From an uncultured archaeon (GTDB lineage: Archaea > Iainarchaeota > Iainarchaeia > Iainarchaeales > CSSED10-239): a stretch of DNA of 9,798 bases. The stretch is from assembly GCA_964463155.1 (NCBI GenBank), contig CAYXAY010000022.1:1-9798 (forward strand), in the 5' to 3' direction. A program made the position numbers and the translations under genes. The notes below the pieces were generated by a model. The model saw only the letters and a list, made by a program, of their open reading frames with translations, did not search any database and was not told the origin of the DNA. This document shows positions 3,374-9,798 of this stretch, piece by piece (position 1 is the first letter of the stretch; every line of letters starts with the position of its first letter).

Positions 3374-3387
3374 GAAGAAAAACAACC

Positions 3388-3894
3388 TCAATTGACTGTG
3401 CAGTTGTTTAATATTATTGACTCTTTAGGGCATGTTCCATTAGTTAGAATCATATGATATATGCTGTTTGGATTTAATGTGGTTAAAAGATTTTCATCTC
3501 CTATTGTGTATGTAAAATTAGCGTCAGTAGAAAGATTAGTCATTTCTCCCTTGCTTACTACCTTTTCAAATCTCCCCGCAACTACTAAGTCTTCTTCACT
3601 ACCATTCTTTCCTTGTATTGTCAGTACAAGATTAAATACTCTCAAATTAGAATCATTTCTAAAAACAAGACTTACCTTGTTTCCAGAAGAACTATAAATA
3701 TTACAAGAATCAACAATAAACTTAGCATCCATACAAGAAAGATCACTTGCCTGCTTTAATTCATCTGTTGCCTGGTCCATTCTTTCCTTTGAAGAATTTT
3801 TAAGCCACGCAAAGAAGATTCCTGCTAAAATCACGGTCACAACAATGATTAATGTAACAACAATTACCTCTGATGCCCCTTTTTGTGTATTCAT
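3388..3894 (-). CDS. Secreted or surface protein with an archaeal class III (type IV prepilin-like) signal peptide; pilin-like.
   Basis: 168 aa. The N-terminus MNTQKG/ASEVIVVTLIIVVTVILAGIFFAW has a short charged head, a K-G-A motif and a hydrophobic helix, as in PibD/FlaK-type substrates. The mature part has 4 Cys and 7 N-x-S/T sequons (NSS, NDS, NGS, NLS, NFT, NGT, NCT). Its ATG overlaps the antiporter TGA (ATGA at 3891..3894). Confidence 0.6.
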   Translation of the reverse strand: MNTQKGASEVIVVTLIIVVTVILAGIFFAWLKNSSKERMDQATDELKQASDLSCMDAKFIVDSCNIYSSSGNKVSLVFRNDSNLRVFNLVLTIQGKNGSEEDLVVAGRFEKVVSKGEMTNLSTDANFTYTIGDENLLTTLNPNSIYHMILTNGTCPKESIILNNCTVN

Positions 3895-5144
3895 TTTTTA
3901 CCACCACTTGCCTTTATATTGCTTGTTGATGCTGGCGGATCCTTTTCCCTTTCAACAATTAAGAAATAAACAGTGGTTGAAAGATTAGTTATAAGTATTA
4001 CCAAAAAGGCAATAGCAATAATCTTTTCGGTGAATATGTTGATTAAGCCAAGCCCTATTGGATAGGTTGCAAGAACCGCTGAAGCAAGCCCCCTAGAATG
4101 CAAAGCCACCACAAAAGCCCTATCTTTTTTCTTAAGAATCTTAGAAAACAATAATTGTGTTGAAACCGCCCTTAATATCAATATCAAACTTACTAATGCC
4201 AAAGTTATCAAAATAACATCCAATTTCAATAACATCTTTATATCAATGATTATTCCAAGATAAACAAAAAAGAACGTTTTAATAAGTAGGGAAATTTCTC
4301 TTTGAAAATTTGCAATGCCTTCCCCTAAAGTGTATTCCTTCATCTTGAATGTGTTTAAAAGGCTTGTAGAATTGCCTAAGACTAATCCAAACACAAGAAC
4401 GCAGAATGCGCCATTGCCGCCTAGATATTCCGCTAGAACATACAAAACAAACAAGAAAGCCAAAGTCAAGAAATAATCAAACTCCTTTGCTTCTGTTTGG
4501 TCTCTTAAGATTCTTATCCAGAATAATCCGCCAATCACTCCAATAACAGAAGCAATTGCAAATGCCAAGAATATTGTCTGTGCAATGCTTGTGGTGTTTA
4601 TTGCCTGTGATATTATTAATCCTGCTATTGTGATTGTTGCTACAACACAAAATATATCAGTCATTGCTGATTCTAATGTTAATATTGTCTTTGTCTTATT
4701 ACTTGCGCTTGATTTTGTAATTAAGGGAATAACTATTGCAGAGCTTGTCCCCCCAACAATAACTCCAGCCATCAGACCATAAAGCCATTCAAAGCCAAAA
4801 ATAAAATGTAAAGCTGCGCCACAAGCAAAAGCAGTAACAACAAAAACAATAATTGTATATAAAAATGAATTTTTTATCTCAGTTAATACTTTTCTAAAAT
4901 TAAGATATAACCCACCATCAAATAACAATACAATCAAGGCAATCGTTGCAAAAACGGGCGCAAGTCCTCTCAAAATCTCAATAATAGACACTGGAATTAC
5001 ATTAAATATAGGACCAAACAACAGTCCAACAATTATTAAAATTAGTATATCTGAAATCTTTGTCTTTTTAAAAAATTGGTTTCCAAAAAAGCCAAGTAGA
5101 AATATCGCTGCCAAAAGTAACAATGATAATAAGGTGGTATTCAT
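3891..5144 (-). CDS. Monovalent cation:proton antiporter (Na+/H+ exchanger family, CPA-type).
   Basis: 417 aa and polytopic (about 11-13 hydrophobic helices). The N-terminus LLLLAAIFLLGFFGNQFFKKTKISDILILIIVGLLFGP is typical of Na_H_Exchanger/Kef-type transporters. There is no SD. The AT-rich TATA-like stretch at 5153..5178 is consistent with a leaderless transcript. Confidence 0.85.
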   Translation of the reverse strand: MNTTLLSLLLLAAIFLLGFFGNQFFKKTKISDILILIIVGLLFGPIFNVIPVSIIEILRGLAPVFATIALIVLLFDGGLYLNFRKVLTEIKNSFLYTIIVFVVTAFACGAALHFIFGFEWLYGLMAGVIVGGTSSAIVIPLITKSSASNKTKTILTLESAMTDIFCVVATITIAGLIISQAINTTSIAQTIFLAFAIASVIGVIGGLFWIRILRDQTEAKEFDYFLTLAFLFVLYVLAEYLGGNGAFCVLVFGLVLGNSTSLLNTFKMKEYTLGEGIANFQREISLLIKTFFFVYLGIIIDIKMLLKLDVILITLALVSLILILRAVSTQLLFSKILKKKDRAFVVALHSRGLASAVLATYPIGLGLINIFTEKIIAIAFLVILITNLSTTVYFLIVEREKDPPASTSNIKASGGKK

Positions 5145-5209
5145 ATGTTTCGTTTTTTATTTTATTAAAATATATATTGTGAATTATTTTATAAACTTAA
5201 CTAAAAATA

Positions 5210-5251
5210 AATAATATAGACTAATAACATAATAATATAGACTAATAACAT
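5210..5251 (+). repeat. Perfect 21-bp tandem direct duplication (aataatatagactaataacat x2) in the divergent intergenic region, ending 21 nt before the DAC gene ATG.
   Basis: Copy 1 is 5210..5230 and copy 2 is 5231..5251, identical base for base. Each copy contains a TATA-like ataatata. Confidence 0.9.
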
Positions 5252-5271
5252 AAATTCACGGATAAGTGGTT

Positions 5272-5978
5272 ATGGGAAAAAACAAAAATTTTAATAAGAA
5301 GGTAATAGCAATTGTCACACAAATAGTCAATGGAATGGCAAACAAGAAAAAAGGTTCTTTTTTTATAATCACAAAATCATTTCTGACAAATATGAAAGAC
5401 TTTATCCTGATCTTTTTTCTAAACAAAATGTAAGCATATTCAAAAAGGAAACACAAACTCTTCTTATTGCTCTTCTAGAGGTTGATGGGGCAATTGTTAT
5501 TGATAACCACGGCCACATAGTTGACTATGGCGTCAAAGTAAAAAAAACAAAAATACTTTTCGGACATGGAACAAGACATTCTGCTGCTCGTGGAATCTCC
5601 TGTGTAAAAAATGTTCTGTCAATTATATCTTCTGAAGAAGATGGCAAAGTCAGATTATTTAGAAACGGAGAACAGGTTGCAGAGATAAACCCAAAGACTG
5701 GAAAATCCAAGAAATTCTTTGAAAGAATTGGAGAACTATTTTCAAAGTCTGAGCTTCATGTTGCTACTGCTGGCGGTGTTGCCTCACTATTGCTTCGCTT
5801 GAATCCTTTGCTTTCAGGAATTGTCTTTACTGGTTCTTGGGTCGTCACAAAATATGGAATAGTAAGCTTGAAATATTTCTTACATACAGGAAAGCTTACT
5901 ATTGAAAAGAAACATAAAGAAATCAAAAGAAAAATAAAAAAAATACAGAAAAAACATGGCCAGTCAACAAAACAATAG
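5272..5978 (+). pseudogene. DAC (DisA_N) domain protein, a diadenylate cyclase-like c-di-AMP synthase candidate. It is interrupted by a -1 frame change around 5358-5380 (pseudogene or homopolymer sequencing error).
   Basis: My own translation. Frame 1 runs from ATG 5272: MGKNKNFNKKVIAIVTQIVNGMANKKKGSFFIITKS... and stops at 5431. The frame starting at positions divisible by 3 is open 5298..5978 with no ATG/GTG/TTG before 5790, which is why the track shows only 5790..5978. It reads ...ISDKYERLYPDLFSKQNVSIFKKETQTLLIALLEVDGAIVIDNHGHIVDYGVKVKKTKILFGHGTRHSAARGISCVKNVLSIISSEEDGKVRLFRNGEQVAEI.... The DGA motif, the GTRHxAA motif and the SEE(D/T)G segment are DAC-domain hallmarks. The C-terminus has a hydrophobic stretch (VATAGGVASLLLRLNPLLSGIVFTGSWVV) and a Lys-rich tail. 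Confidence 0.75.
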
Positions 5979-6390
5979 CACAACGGAAATTTCAAAAGGA
6001 ATAGTCCAGTCATTTATAAGAATCGCAATGAGAGTTATTCTATTTGGAATTATAATTCCAGGAATAATCTACATTGGCATTAGATTCTTAGAAATTGCTT
6101 TTGGATTTGGCTGGAAAGAACAATTAACTTACCAGTATATGGGTTATATCTATACTGTTGGTTATGCTTTGTTTTTGGTGTATATGGCAATAAGAAACCA
6201 ACTAAGCACAACCTTGTATTATTCAATAGGTTGGATTTTTGGTTTGTTATTAATGTTTAGGCTTGGAATATTTACTACCAGAATGTTTTTTGGTTTTTTG
6301 TTTGTGCCAGTGATATTTGTAATCATTAAGATCTTGTATCTAATTTTTAAAAAAAAGGAAAAAAAAGTTAAAAGAAATTATAGCCCTTAG
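5956..6390 (+). CDS. Small integral membrane protein (about 4 TM helices), function unknown.
   Basis: 144-aa ORF with ATG start. It has four long hydrophobic segments and a KKKEKKVKR tail. It overlaps the DAC gene 3' end by 23 nt, and converges with the repeat-protein gene with a 23-nt overlap. Confidence 0.5.
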   Translation: MASQQNNSTTEISKGIVQSFIRIAMRVILFGIIIPGIIYIGIRFLEIAFGFGWKEQLTYQYMGYIYTVGYALFLVYMAIRNQLSTTLYYSIGWIFGLLLMFRLGIFTTRMFFGFLFVPVIFVIIKILYLIFKKKEKKVKRNYSP

Positions 6391-8326
6391 AGTGAAGTCT
6401 TACATATCTTTGCATTCTTCTTTGGCTTACTCCAAGTTCTGCTAGTTCTTTGTAACCATATCCTGCTTTTATCAATTGCTCTGTGTTATAGCCAGCTTTA
6501 TGTAGTTCTTTTGCAGAAAAGCCAAGTGGCTTTAGTTCTTTAGCTGAATATCTAATCACTCTTAATTGTCTTGCATTTTGTCCTAATTTCCAAACATCTT
6601 TTGCAGAATAACCAGCAAAATATAGTTCTCTTGGTAAAAATCCAACAGCATACAGTTCCTTTGCAGAATAGCCAGCATCTCTTAAAGACGCTGGTGAAAA
6701 ACCAAGTGGCTTTAGGTCTTTAGCAGGATATGCTTTTCTTAAATCATATGCACTATAGCCAGCGTCTCTCATTTCTTTTGCTGTGTAGCCGGCTTTTGCA
6801 AGTTCTTCAACATCAATATCTAGGTCATTCAGTTCTTTTGCTGAATAGCCTGCATCTTTAATCATTTTTAATTCAAAACCCGCAAAATAAAGTTCTCTTG
6901 CAGTAAACCCAAGATTATGGAATTGTCTTGCTGAATAGCCGATACCAAGTAGTTCTTTTGCTGAATAGCCCGCGTCTCTTAATTCATAAAGGTTATAGCC
7001 TGCAAGATGAATCTCCACAGCAGAAAATCCGGCTTTTTTAAGTTCTTTAATTGTACAGCCTTTTGAGATAAATTCTGGTAGTTCACAACCAATAAGTCTT
7101 ATTTCATTTAATGGACAGCCGGCATCCATCAATTGTGAGCAAAAAAGTCCTGCTTTTGATAATTCTTTTGTAGTATAGCCTGCAATATAAAGTTCTGCGG
7201 GAGAATAACCAAAATCCAATAGTTCCTTTGCAGAATAATTAAGATATCTTAGTTCTTCTAGATGGAATTCTTCTTTTTTTTCCTTTTCTGTTAATAGTTC
7301 CCTTAAATCAAATATTTCTTTTAGTTTGTAGCCTGCTTCTTTTAGTTCTTTAATTGAGTATCCTGCTTGGTACATGTCTTTTGCAGAAATGCCAGCAATC
7401 CTAAATTGGTTTGCAGTAACTCCGACTGGTGCTAATTCTTTTATTCTGAATCCTTCTTTTAAAAGGTCTGCAATTGTTATGCCGTCGTCCAACAATTCCT
7501 GTATATTTATTTTTCTTCTGTCAATTAATTCTAAAAGAGTGTGTCCTGCAAGCAATAGTTCGCCTATGGTGTATACTTTTTTTAGGTCTTCTAAAGTATA
7601 TCCTGCATCAAGCAATTGCCTTGCCTTGTAGCCTGCAATCTTTAATTTCTTTACTGGAAAATTGTGTTTGTATAGTTCCTTTGCTGGATATTGGGCATAA
7701 GAAACAACATCTTCGTTAAATTTTGTGTTTAACAGTTCCTTAACAGAATAACCTGTATCTCTTAGTTCCTTAGCAGAATAGCCTGCTCTCTTAAGCTCAA
7801 TCAAAGAAAATTTTGCTTTTTTTAATTCCATTGCTGAAAAGCCTAGAGTAAATAAATATTTTGAACCAAATTTCATTTTCTTTAGTCTTGTAACAGTATA
7901 TTTTGCTTTTTTTAATTTAAAGTGATTGTAACCTAATTGTAATAATTTCTTTGCTGGCGTTTTCTTTTTTAGAAGTTCTGAAATAGTTAATTTCTTCTTT
8001 ATTATTTTCTTTTTTACTGGTTTTGATTTTATTGTTTTTTTCTTTGGTTTAATTAAAGAAAAGCCAAGTTCTTTTAGTTCTGGATTAGTAAAGCCCGCTG
8101 TTTTTAAATCCTTAATTGTGTATTTCATGCCTTCAAAGATTGTGTGGTTTGCCTTTACTTTTTTTAAGTCTTTAGCATATCTTTCTAAACTTATTTTTTT
8201 CTTTTTTAGATGAGAAATATCTATTGGAGAAATTATAAATCTCTTTGGAGAATTAAGCTGTTTATTTAATAATTCAACTACTTCTTTCTTTTTAAGTGTT
8301 TGAGTTATCTTTTTCATATATTTCAC
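6368..8326 (-). CDS. Large tandem-repeat protein: a Lys-rich N-terminal region followed by about 50 in-register decapeptide repeats (x-x-A-G-Y/F-S-A-K-E-L). No family recognised.
   Basis: 652-aa uninterrupted ORF in a region of 30-nt DNA periodicity. There is no signal peptide or TM segment. The listed start at 8326 is GTG, and the ATG at 8317 (MKKITQ...) is a likely alternative. Example run: RDAGYSAKEL LGIGYSARQF HNLGFTAREL YFAGFELKMI KDAGYSAKEL. Confidence 0.8.
   Translation of the reverse strand: MKYMKKITQTLKKKEVVELLNKQLNSPKRFIISPIDISHLKKKKISLERYAKDLKKVKANHTIFEGMKYTIKDLKTAGFTNPELKELGFSLIKPKKKTIKSKPVKKKIIKKKLTISELLKKKTPAKKLLQLGYNHFKLKKAKYTVTRLKKMKFGSKYLFTLGFSAMELKKAKFSLIELKRAGYSAKELRDTGYSVKELLNTKFNEDVVSYAQYPAKELYKHNFPVKKLKIAGYKARQLLDAGYTLEDLKKVYTIGELLLAGHTLLELIDRRKINIQELLDDGITIADLLKEGFRIKELAPVGVTANQFRIAGISAKDMYQAGYSIKELKEAGYKLKEIFDLRELLTEKEKKEEFHLEELRYLNYSAKELLDFGYSPAELYIAGYTTKELSKAGLFCSQLMDAGCPLNEIRLIGCELPEFISKGCTIKELKKAGFSAVEIHLAGYNLYELRDAGYSAKELLGIGYSARQFHNLGFTARELYFAGFELKMIKDAGYSAKELNDLDIDVEELAKAGYTAKEMRDAGYSAYDLRKAYPAKDLKPLGFSPASLRDAGYSAKELYAVGFLPRELYFAGYSAKDVWKLGQNARQLRVIRYSAKELKPLGFSAKELHKAGYNTEQLIKAGYGYKELAELGVSQRRMQRYVRLHSKGYNFF
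6413..7942 (-). repeat. 30-nt periodic coding repeat array (the decapeptide repeats), with some near-identical DNA units.
   Basis: For example, the 20-mer agttcttttgctgaatagcc occurs exactly at 6831..6850 and 6951..6970 (120 nt apart, or 4 units). Related versions occur at about 6654, 6927, 7221 and 7765. The boundaries are approximate. Confidence 0.8.
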
Positions 8327-8472: not shown

Positions 8473-8835
8473 ATGGCTAAAAAAAATAATGAAAAATTAA
8501 AAAAATTTGGAGCAATTGCATTCATAGTTGGTGTAGTAATTGCTTTAATTGCGGGAATCTTATCTAGAATGATAGGAGAAGTAGTTACAACGTCAATATT
8601 AGTATTACTTGGACTTGCTGTTGGTTTCTTAAATGTCACAGACACAGAAGTAAAGGATTACTTACTTGCATCAGTTGCTCTTGTAATTGTAACTGCTCTT
8701 GGTAGTGCTGTACTTGGAGGAATAATGTATATAGGTCCTTACCTAGGAAGCGTATTACAAGCAATAACAACTTTTGTAATTCCAGCTACAATAATTGTTG
8801 CTTTAAAAGAAATCTATGGTTTAGCTAAAAACTAA
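8473..8835 (+). CDS. Small integral membrane protein (3-4 TM helices), function unknown.
   Basis: 120-aa ORF with ATG start. A G-rich SD-like AAGGGGGA ends 8 nt upstream (G-run 8460..8464). The sequence is hydrophobic and Gly/Ala/Val/Ile-rich throughout. Confidence 0.6.
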   Translation: MAKKNNEKLKKFGAIAFIVGVVIALIAGILSRMIGEVVTTSILVLLGLAVGFLNVTDTEVKDYLLASVALVIVTALGSAVLGGIMYIGPYLGSVLQAITTFVIPATIIVALKEIYGLAKN

Positions 8836-8838
8836 ATC

Positions 8839-8856
8839 TTTTCTTTTTCTTTTTTT
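8839..8856 (+). terminator. Oligo-T tracts (T4, T5, T7) immediately after the membrane protein gene.
   Basis: The sequence cttttctttttcttttttt begins 3 nt after the TAA at 8833..8835. This is a typical archaeal oligo-T termination signal in a convergent gene junction. Confidence 0.5.
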
Positions 8857-8857
8857 C

Positions 8858-9067
8858 TTATTTTATATAAATAGTTGATGCTTTTTTTAATCTGGTCATT
8901 ATGGCTTTGCCTAACTTGTCTTCGTCAATTCCTTGAGCAATAATTATATCTATTTTGTCTTTATCAAATTCTCTAAAATAAGAAAATAGTTTTTGTGCAT
9001 AGATTTTTGTATCAGAATCTAAATACCTAACATTATTTTCTTTTAAATCAAAACTATAAGAAAGCAT
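8858..9067 (-). CDS. sua5: C-terminal (Sua5-domain) fragment of the threonylcarbamoyl-AMP synthase gene, displaced into another frame.
   Basis: The 69-aa ORF ...YAQKLFSYFREFDKDKIDIIIAQGIDEDKLGKAIMTRLKKAS matches the conserved Sua5 C-terminal end (L..LR.fD....D.I.......GlG.AimnRL.KAa). This frame is open upstream to 9124, so it overlaps the end of the main ORF. Confidence 0.7.
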   Translation of the reverse strand: MLSYSFDLKENNVRYLDSDTKIYAQKLFSYFREFDKDKIDIIIAQGIDEDKLGKAIMTRLKKASTIYIK

Positions 9068-9759
9068 ACCTTTTTTTTCTTTGGATTTTTCTTCTTTATT
9101 AATTCTATTTCTCTCAAGAAATTTCTATTATAGTCAATTAAGATAACTTTTGCTTTTGGGGAATAATGTGTGTATTTCATTCCTGGGGCTTTTGGTTTAT
9201 CTCCATTTTTAGAATTTAAATTAGAAAATTCAACTTCTCCAATAACTTCTTCAATATCTTCTTTAGTAATGTATCCTGGTCGTAATATTGTTGAAGTATT
9301 AGAAGTAAAGTCAATAACTGTTGACTCAAGGTCAACTTTACAACATCCCACATCAATGATCATTGAAATCTTGTTATTAAGATCTTCAATGACATGTTTT
9401 GCTGTTGTTGGGCTTGGTTTTCCTGAAATATTTGCACTTGGTGCAACAATTGGAACTTTTGATTGTTTTATTAATTCTAAAGCAATTTTGTTGTTAGGCA
9501 TTCTTATTGCTACACTGTCCAGTCCTGCTGTAACAATGTCTGAAACAACTTTTTTCTTTTTAAGAACTATTGTTAAAGGTCCAGGCCAAAACTTTTTTGT
9601 TAATTTTTGCGCAGATTTTGGGAAATCTTTTGCAAGTTTTTTAATCTGAGAGATATCAGAAATGTGAGCAATTAATGGATTATCTTGTGGTCTACCTTTA
9701 ACTTTAAATATTTCTGAAACTGCCAAAGGATTAAAAGCATTTGCCCCAAGGCCATAAAC
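9043..9759 (-). CDS. sua5: L-threonylcarbamoyladenylate synthase (Sua5/YrdC/TsaC family), main body. The 5' end is truncated by a fold-back and the 3' end is frameshifted.
   Basis: Reads VYGLGANAFNPLAVSEIFKVKGRPQDNPLIAH...WPGPLTIVL...IRMP...VAPSANISGKPSPTTA...PGMKYTHYSP. The KGRP..NPLI and SAN.SG motifs are family hallmarks. The track start at 9726 is an internal TTG. The frame is open to 9771, but upstream of VYGLG it reads EKKQ instead of the expected PTET. Confidence 0.85.
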   Translation of the reverse strand, partial: VYGLGANAFNPLAVSEIFKVKGRPQDNPLIAHISDISQIKKLAKDFPKSAQKLTKKFWPGPLTIVLKKKKVVSDIVTAGLDSVAIRMPNNKIALELIKQSKVPIVAPSANISGKPSPTTAKHVIEDLNNKISMIIDVGCCKVDLESTVIDFTSNTSTILRPGYITKEDIEEVIGEVEFSNLNSKNGDKPKAPGMKYTHYSPKAKVILIDYNRNFLREIELIKKKNPKKKKVCFLIVLI

Positions 9760-9798
9760 TTGTTTCTTTTCCTACAGAAACGGTTTATGGCCTTGGGG
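9744..9798. repeat. Perfect 16-bp inverted repeat (ccccaaggccataaac at 9744..9759 and gtttatggccttgggg at 9783..9798) around a 23-nt spacer, reaching the last base of the window.
   Basis: Read directly. The plus strand at 9759..9798 encodes LVSFPTETVYGLG, the missing Sua5 N-terminal motif, but in the opposite orientation to the gene body. Confidence 0.9.

Follow-up and report, generated by a model that had tools for sequence, protein, structure and literature searches.

The split gene and its domain

Contig CAYXAY010000022.1 of an uncultured archaeon of the Iainarchaeota was analysed as one window of 9,798 nucleotides (the whole stretch), which has a GC content of 30%. The window holds a diadenylate cyclase (DAC) gene that is divided between two reading frames, here called A and B, at the site of a 4-nucleotide deletion. 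The features of this gene are as follows.

5272-5978, forward strand: the whole DAC gene, in two frames, encoding a DAC/DisA_N domain
ATG 5272 to TAA 5431-5433, forward strand: frame A, 53 codons, opening with MGKNKNFNKKVIAIVTQIVNGMANKKKGSFFIITKS and closing with 17 out-of-frame residues
5272..5378, forward strand: native 5' portion of the DAC gene, read in frame A as 36 residues (Met1-Ser36) and comprising the N-terminal helix and the GSFFIITK strand
5358..5364, forward strand: run of seven T (T7), encoding the conserved Phe-Phe of GSFFII, with U UUU UUU in phase with frame A
between 5378 and 5379, forward strand: site of the 4-nucleotide deletion, as placed by nucleotide alignment with nine intact relatives
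5379..5433, forward strand: out-of-frame continuation of frame A up to its premature stop (TAA 5431-5433), 17 residues (FLTNMKDFILIFFLNKM)
5379..5978, forward strand: 3' portion of the DAC gene, made up of 199 frame-B codons and the stop TAG 5976-5978
5484-5492, forward strand: DGA motif, frame B (VDGA at 5481-5492)
5562-5588, forward strand: GHGTRHSAA motif, frame B (RHS at 5574-5582)
5628-5645, forward strand: SSEEDG motif, frame B
5766-5846, forward strand: hydrophobic C-terminal module, frame B
5907-5957, forward strand: Lys-rich tail, frame B

The native segment of frame A aligned with the N-termini of 28 intact homologues; the third base of its last codon, that of Ser36, is position 5379 and thus lies past the deletion. 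Frame B, which runs one base earlier than frame A, is open from about 5296 to the TAG at 5976-5978 (about 228 codons) and reads ...ISDKYERLYPDLF...LLEVDGAIVID...GHGTRHSAARGIS...IISSEEDGKVRLF... When it was scanned for start codons, no ATG, GTG or TTG was found before 5790, which ruled out reinitiation at an internal start. The window copy accordingly has no uninterrupted reading frame with a start codon over the domain. A preliminary description of this DNA, made from its letters, had already reported the frame split, a second part without its own start, a C-terminal hydrophobic segment and a Lys-rich tail, all of which are indeed present.

The repaired protein of 235 residues matched the Pfam profile PF02457 (length 119) from position 4 to 118 with E=3.5e-14 and 52.9 bits, where the gathering score is 27 bits. 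Frame B alone gave 49.1 bits and covered profile positions 27-118, while a search of PF02457 with the 53-residue frame-A peptide alone gave no match. This indicated that the two pieces are halves of a single domain, and the extension of the profile match from position 27 to 4 that frame A contributes the domain's first strand and helix. An AlphaFold2 model built with 29 homologues had a predicted local distance difference test score (pLDDT) of about 90 over residues 10-140. Compared with the PDB by Foldseek, this model recovered diadenylate cyclases (CdaA, DacA, DacM/CdaM and DisA) in all of the top 50 matches listed, with a probability of 1.00; the best was chain 7dfx_B, a CdaM/DacM (E=5.7e-9), and the target-normalised TM-score reached 0.67. 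The model has the mixed alpha/beta DAC fold. A sequence profile search of the PDB led to CdaA (E=4e-11) and paired GALLTI with GSLFII, HDGA with LDGA, GTRHRAA with GTRHSAA, and SEETG with SEEDG. Thus the original assignment of the gene as a DAC was borne out both by the PF02457 match and by a model fold that is that of CdaA, CdaM and DisA.

The four-nucleotide deletion

The nine intact relatives with which the lesion was placed are 70-78% identical to the window at the nucleotide level. They read AAATC[TGAT]ATTTCT or an equivalent where the window has AAATCATTTCT; with the extra four nucleotides this junction takes the form AAATCNGATATTTCT. The deletion removes one codon (Asp) and one further base, and so shifts the frame. 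At the protein level, the family consensus around the junction is GSFFIITKxDISxKYExLYPDLF, and the window is one residue short there in addition to changing frame. The spacer between the GSxxxx strand and IS.KY is four residues long in 56 of 56 related loci that carry this pair of motifs, all in a single open frame that also holds the RH motif; in the window, a 4-residue spacer and the RH motif are not found together in any one frame.

The preliminary description had bracketed the shift between 5358 and 5380 and had suggested, as an alternative, a phase-variable cyclase switched by the length of a T7, A6 or A4 run. The deletion does fall inside this bracket, and the runs, at 5347-5352, 5358-5364 and 5373-5376, stand just 5' of the frame switch, but the frame changes through the loss of four nucleotides and not through the length of any run. 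The alignment with the intact relatives puts the lesion after all three of them, in non-repetitive sequence, and a homopolymer slip was thereby ruled out as the cause. In seven of the nine relatives the T7 run is unaltered in length, and the sequence that includes it, GGTTCTTTTTTTATAAT, is identical, in frame, and encodes Gly-Ser-Phe-Phe-Ile-Ile; L010 and L014 have TTTCTTT at this site, with only synonymous differences. Adding a base to T7 or A6 would repair the frame, but it would replace the conserved IITKSD strand. Runs of 4-7 nucleotides are also short for contingency loci. We consider switching by run length highly improbable.

It may also be imagined that the deletion is real and that some full-length cyclase is nevertheless produced by -1 slippage, since any -1 event between about 5296 and 5433 would recover the DAC frame. 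One route would be re-pairing of the P-site tRNA-Lys on A-AAA (5373-5376), directly before the deletion, where the four A permit a perfect match. The near-native product, ...ITK-IISDKY..., scores 52.9 bits over profile positions 4-118, like an intact relative in Pfam. The other would be a ribosomal or transcriptional slip on U UUU UUU (5358-5364), a formal X XXY YYZ heptamer in frame-A phase (codons TTT TTT), leading to ...GSFFYNHKIISDKY...; this product, however, is devoid of the domain's first strand and its Pfam match starts only at profile position 25. No stimulatory structure was found downstream: the minimum free energy of 5365-5450 was -3.9 kcal/mol (z=+1.6), worse than that of 193 of 200 shuffles. 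Furthermore, recoding sites are normally conserved, and the frameshift was present in no relative, the 56 loci being in a single frame and the close JGI and GTDB matches continuous. That the T7 run and the A-rich codons are kept in intact relatives is explained by their encoding GSFFIITK. A programmed -1 frameshift was therefore rejected, the heptamer being there while structure and conservation are lacking, and slippage in any form appears very unlikely.

The search for the lesion in other genomes covered 25 GTDB species representatives and 334 JGI metagenome relatives, of which the best was 83% identical. Every close relative among them was continuous across the junction. A pattern scan of JGI that allowed 0-4 extra bases at the junction gave no match, and nothing nearer than 83% identity came out of the scan of JGI relatives. 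Exact look-ups of the 53- and 55-residue frame-A products found no annotated protein, and a 132-residue partial product was absent from the collection searched. Apart from the deletion, the window copy is that of a well-preserved gene. It retains all 25 invariant and 28 nearly invariant residues of the family, and its private changes number none at family-invariant columns and six, all mild, relative to the 15 closest sequences. Frame B is also free of stops over about 228 codons of DNA with 30% GC. The median ratio of nonsynonymous to synonymous substitution rates (dN/dS) was 0.11 for pairs that include the window and 0.14 among intact genes; because dS is saturated (1.1-2.3), this is a coarse measure, which shows merely that no relaxation is visible.

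A family of putative cyclases in DPANN archaea

A word-seeded search returned 94 homologues, all with PF02457 (median 228 residues; full-length members about 215-250), the best of which was 83% identical (E=5e-113), with a coverage of 88-100%. They come from metagenome-assembled genomes (MAGs) labelled archaeon, Ca. Iainarchaeum/Diapherotrites, Micrarchaeota or Marsarchaeota, in agreement with the small-genome archaeal source that had been proposed for the window. Several of their records (e.g. P0016, P0034, P0041 and P0082) already bear the label 'diadenylate cyclase [archaeon]' or 'DisA nucleotide-binding domain protein'. When 1.84 billion representatives were searched exhaustively, 2,115 matched at E<=1e-3 and 25 cluster representatives at E<=1e-30; representatives of about 190-235 residues matched from profile position ~10 to ~200.

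The same plan is found across these phyla: an N-terminal DAC domain, a module of the form TAGGVASLLLxxNPxxAGxVFTGSWIxTKYG, in which F186 and G188 are invariant and A171, P179, T187 and S189 nearly so, and a basic tail. The window protein shares the length of the family, this order of parts and the GHGTRHSAA and SSEEDG motifs. In the exhaustive search, about 75 of the best 149 representatives had the DAC domain near the N-terminus; 37 of these had a C-terminal tail of more than 70 residues, with a hydrophobic stretch in 36 of the 37. The minimal architecture to which the preliminary description had drawn attention is therefore real, and it is typical of the whole family, whose members have 215-250 residues, rather than something special to this locus. 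The maximal 19-residue hydropathy of the tail had a median of 1.59; all 88 full-length tails reached 1.33 or more and 40 of them 1.6 or more, compared with a value of 1.07 in the DAC part. As a transmembrane (TM) helix the module is therefore a borderline case, and a kinked hairpin or a peripheral anchor fits better; because the AlphaFold confidence is low there (pLDDT 45-65), no topology can be claimed for it.

The same is true of the RHS motif, which had been described as a variant of canonical RHR. It is present (GTRHSAA, where GxRHRxA is the reference, so that Arg and His are kept and the third residue is Ser), but it is not peculiar to this gene: GTRHS was found in 89 of the 94 homologues, GTRHA in 2 and RHR in none, while the DGA position held xDGA or xDGG in 93. 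Among the approximately 75 representatives with an N-terminal DAC domain, RHS occurred 25 times, RHA 22 times and RHR once. The next-nearest relatives, which are DacZ-like, have RHI, RHL, RHM and other variants; one of them (P0197, 426.5 bits on the DacZ model) carries GTRHMAG. The third position of the motif is therefore not conserved outside CdaA and DisA. Mutagenesis elsewhere has shown that activity is abolished or nearly so by R203A in Leptospira CdaA (PMC12974146) and by a change of Arg143 in DacM (bioRxiv 10.1101/2022.03.11.483894), and in Mycobacterium tuberculosis DisA the whole triplet was tested, as RHR to AAA (PMC3328451). The window protein keeps the residues found essential in the first two studies, namely the Asp of DGA and the Arg that opens the motif.

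Comparison with the models of the named classes gave scores far below their cut-offs: 36.8 bits against 188.8 for CdaA (TIGR00159), 45.4 against 430 for DacZ (NF041371; model positions 141-268 only), 22.5 against 225 for CdaS and 18.5 against 225 for CdaM (NF038327); the NCBIfam model of DisA did not match the window protein. The DAC domain begins at about residue 8, and a hydropathy scan found no hydrophobic segment on its N-terminal side. The protein thus has the characteristics of none of the CdaA, DacZ/CdaZ, DisA, CdaS and CdaM classes, and by its sequence it is assigned to a separate family of DAC-domain proteins, with a domain nearest to that of DacZ-type enzymes.

It resembles CdaA/DacA of Listeria, Bacillus and Staphylococcus (4RV7, 6HVL, 6HUW, 6GYW) in its DAC fold (TM-score 0.6-0.67), in the conserved Asp-Gly-Ala, Gly-Thr-Arg-His and Ser-Glu-Glu, and in being probably membrane-associated. 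In CdaA, however, three N-terminal TM helices precede the DAC domain, whereas the hydrophobic part follows it here; RHR is replaced by RHS and SEETG by SEEDG, and the His before DGA is absent. DacZ/CdaZ, known from Haloferax volcanii and Methanocaldococcus jannaschii, is likewise archaeal and, of the named classes, gives the DAC domain its highest score (45-54 bits); in DacZ-like representatives, too, the third residue of the motif is other than Arg (RHM, RHI, RHL). It differs by an N-terminal PK_C-like domain of about 120 residues and a C-terminal DAC domain, neither of which is found in the window protein. CdaM/DacM of Mycoplasma (7DFX, 8OFJ) is also a small minimal cyclase from a reduced genome with a single membrane anchor, but this anchor is one N-terminal TM helix and its motif is the canonical RHR (bioRxiv 10.1101/2022.03.11.483894).

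Experimental work on cyclic di-AMP (c-di-AMP) in archaea has dealt with DacZ/CdaZ of Euryarchaeota (PMC6741144, PMC10249747), and dacZ was reported in 2025 to be absent from DPANN, TACK and Asgard lineages (PMC12699388). A 2023 review states, citing Galperin 2023, that DACs are predicted in several candidate archaeal phyla (PMC10249747). Galperin 2023 distinguished 22 DAC families or architectures, a number given in PMC12901056, and the combination of an N-terminal DAC domain with a C-terminal hydrophobic part may already be among them. The window gene is a broken member of a DAC family that is already annotated and still uncharacterised.

The following features surround the gene.

3891..5144, reverse strand: Na+/H+ exchanger gene, 417 residues (PF00999, E=2.6e-41), divergent from the DAC gene
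5182..5206, forward strand: promoter-like block AATTATTTTATAAACTTAACTAAAA 5' of the DAC gene, containing the TATA-box-like TTTTATAAA (5187-5195)
5210..5253, forward strand: perfect 21-nucleotide tandem duplication AATAATATAGACTAATAACAT, 2.1 copies (tandem repeat finder, 100% matches)
5956..6390, forward strand: gene for a 4-TM protein, 144 residues, overlapping the 3' end of the DAC gene by 23 nucleotides
6368-8326, reverse strand: decapeptide-repeat protein gene, 652 residues (PF25296, E=1e-157, 12 stretches)
9043-9726, reverse strand: Sua5 gene, lacking its first ~35 codons as a result of the inverted repeat at the window end
9744-9759 and 9783-9798: perfect 16-nucleotide inverted repeat at the window end, with a 23-nucleotide spacer

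The AATTATTTTATAAACTTAACTAAAA block was almost unchanged in 11 of the 12 loci of close relatives (L002, L004-L009 and L011-L014), the sequence of L010 ending short of it. It is strongly kept while the coding sequences are only 70-78% identical, and it is retained in L002 despite a different upstream gene. We infer that it is an archaeal promoter. In some relatives, such as L004, the ATG follows the block by about 25 nucleotides or less, and this short distance suggests a leaderless transcript. The 21-nucleotide duplication stands between the block and the DAC start; none of the 12 relatives' loci examined has the unit duplicated, and its duplicated form is also found in contig L003 of the Logan assembly. 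It represents a second private, slippage-type change at the DAC locus. Scans of the window against Rfam and for tRNAs gave no match; a sigma-70 promoter and terminator scan is uninformative for an archaeon.

The overlap of the DAC gene with a gene for a small 4-TM protein, noted previously, is real, and the 144-residue product has four Kyte-Doolittle hydrophobic peaks in two overlapping pairs. It had no match in Pfam or NCBIfam, and just 11 homologues were detected. Among close loci, defined by a DAC at least ~65% identical, a homologue of 138-150 residues starts between -32 and +8 nucleotides of the DAC stop in all 11 that reach past this stop, and it evolves fast (30-58% identity, versus 70-83% for the DAC). 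Further away the association loosens. In L016 and L017 the homologue is found ~0.8 kb beyond the DAC gene, from which an inserted gene in opposite orientation separates it, and in the other Iainarchaeia loci, L015 and L018-L021, none was found within the stretch fetched. In loci of the Micrarchaeota type, the KEOPS kinase Bud32 follows the DAC gene instead, often with a 4-nucleotide overlap; it was directly 3' of the DAC (TIGR03724, E=2e-50) in 21 fetched loci (L022-L030, L059-L069 and L074). As these Bud32 sequences are just 39-88% identical to each other, the DAC-Bud32 pair is conserved over a long distance. In L029 the Bud32 homologue (8652-9205) appeared as two tblastn pieces (residues 14-120 and 131-199) and may be interrupted. 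The window, L013, L014 and L017 carry another gene of the t6A (threonylcarbamoyladenosine) pathway, Sua5, at a distance of a few kb from the DAC gene.

The DAC/4-TM pair is thus a clade-specific operon, compatible with the 4-TM protein being a membrane partner, as had been suggested. The suggestion stands as to adjacency in the 11 close loci, and not as a general rule, the gene being displaced, absent or replaced by Bud32 elsewhere. Nor is the pairing strong evidence for partnership, because synteny is conserved over the whole neighbourhood at this divergence, in the order pilin-like gene, Na+/H+ exchanger, DAC, 4-TM gene, decapeptide-repeat protein and 120-residue protein; the window shares with its close clade the order from exchanger to decapeptide-repeat protein. 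The decapeptide-repeat gene is convergent with the 4-TM gene (23-nucleotide overlap of their ends) and occupies the same place in all close relatives. The divergent exchanger/DAC arrangement recurs in L005-L009 and L011-L014, and not in L002. Cation/proton antiporters are targets of c-di-AMP in bacteria, and the adjacency may or may not be meaningful; no RCK_C domain was detected.

Origin of the lesion and its meaning

With its invariant residues, a dN/dS of ~0.1 and the promoter block all in place, the gene is otherwise pristine, and the lesion is shared by no relative; it must thus be either recent or artefactual. Most likely, then, this private deletion of four nucleotides marks either a gene that has only just been inactivated or a local error of assembly, not a new type of switch. 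Between these two, we lean towards a genuine, recent loss-of-function allele, i.e. an incipient pseudogene or a defective variant within the population sampled, which is in line with the decaying cyclase that the preliminary description had offered as an alternative. The presence of the deletion in the cells, and not just in the assembly, is suggested by several observations. A clean loss of four nucleotides outside any homopolymer or repeat is atypical of short-read or consensus errors. The other genes of the 9.8-kb window align full length with their relatives, which indicates that the assembly is not generally prone to indels. The nearby 21-nucleotide duplication, another oddity of the locus, was reproduced in a second assembly. 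The window copy alone combines the deletion, and hence the loss of an intact reading frame, with this duplication in the leader.

Other observations weigh against a real deletion and would be accounted for if low coverage, or a chimeric or erroneous read, had entered the consensus while the gene is intact in the organism. The deletion is known from the assembled sequence, not from reads. In the Logan assembly of run SRR11582140, contigs L003 and L001 correspond to window 3387-5343 and 5578-7004, both with 100% identity, and the assembly breaks at 5343/5344 and 5577/5578, perhaps through low coverage or branching, so that the 234 nucleotides bearing the deletion are outside both contigs. The 4-TM protein and the Na+/H+ exchanger of the window are on record from NCBI and from Logan; exact look-ups of the neighbouring proteins led to these two Logan contigs only, neither of which spans the junction. 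Neither of the frame-A products is annotated as a protein on record. At the end of the window, the spacer of the inverted repeat is native Sua5 coding sequence, inverted relative to L013, L014 and L017; this looks like a fold-back or chimera of a contig end, which cuts Sua5, and the assembly therefore has at least one local defect. An assembly error that struck a functional gene would likewise leave an intact promoter, a single lesion and strong purifying selection. Finally, c-di-AMP synthesis is essential in the archaeon in which this was tested, Haloferax volcanii (PMC6741144), which lowers the prior likelihood that a sole cyclase would be lost, though DPANN symbionts may differ. We regard an artefact as the less likely explanation, yet one to be taken seriously.

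If the genuine loss-of-function allele is accepted, its consequences can be sketched from the intact relatives. These encode a protein of ~230 residues with the DAC domain at about residues 8-146, containing Asp-Gly-Ala, Arg-His and Ser-Glu-Glu. To judge from the homologous CdaA, CdaM and DacZ, two such domains would pair head to head and convert two ATP to c-di-AMP; the DPANN family is a putative group of active cyclases. The C-terminal module of ~60 residues, moderately hydrophobic, with two short stretches around an Asn-Pro turn and then the Lys-rich tail, may anchor the enzyme on the cytoplasmic side of the membrane, the role that N-terminal TM helices have in CdaA and CdaM. In the window, with four bases lost at 5378/5379, translation from the ATG at 5272 would leave the frame after Ser36 and stop at 5431-5433, giving a peptide of 53 residues with no catalytic motif. 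As the remaining 199 codons have no start codon, no cyclase would be made, and translational coupling to the overlapping 4-TM gene has probably been lost too. As the rest of the gene and its promoter show no decay, the private lesion would be very recent.

For the locus itself the outcome is mostly housekeeping, in that a missed gene was recovered and its oddities turned out to be family traits or a simple 4-nucleotide lesion. The wider point is a modest one: a coherent, uncharacterised DAC family spans Iainarchaeota, Micrarchaeota and Marsarchaeota. A bolder proposal, to which we give little credence, is that DPANN archaea have a c-di-AMP synthase class of their own, with a C-terminal hydrophobic hairpin anchor and an RHS or RHA motif, accompanied by the 4-TM protein in some Iainarchaeia and by Bud32 in Micrarchaeota, and that the lineage of the window has been caught losing it. 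If this were true, c-di-AMP would be dispensable for a host-dependent archaeon. Provided that the deletion is real, this MAG would be a natural test of whether a DPANN archaeon manages without its cyclase.

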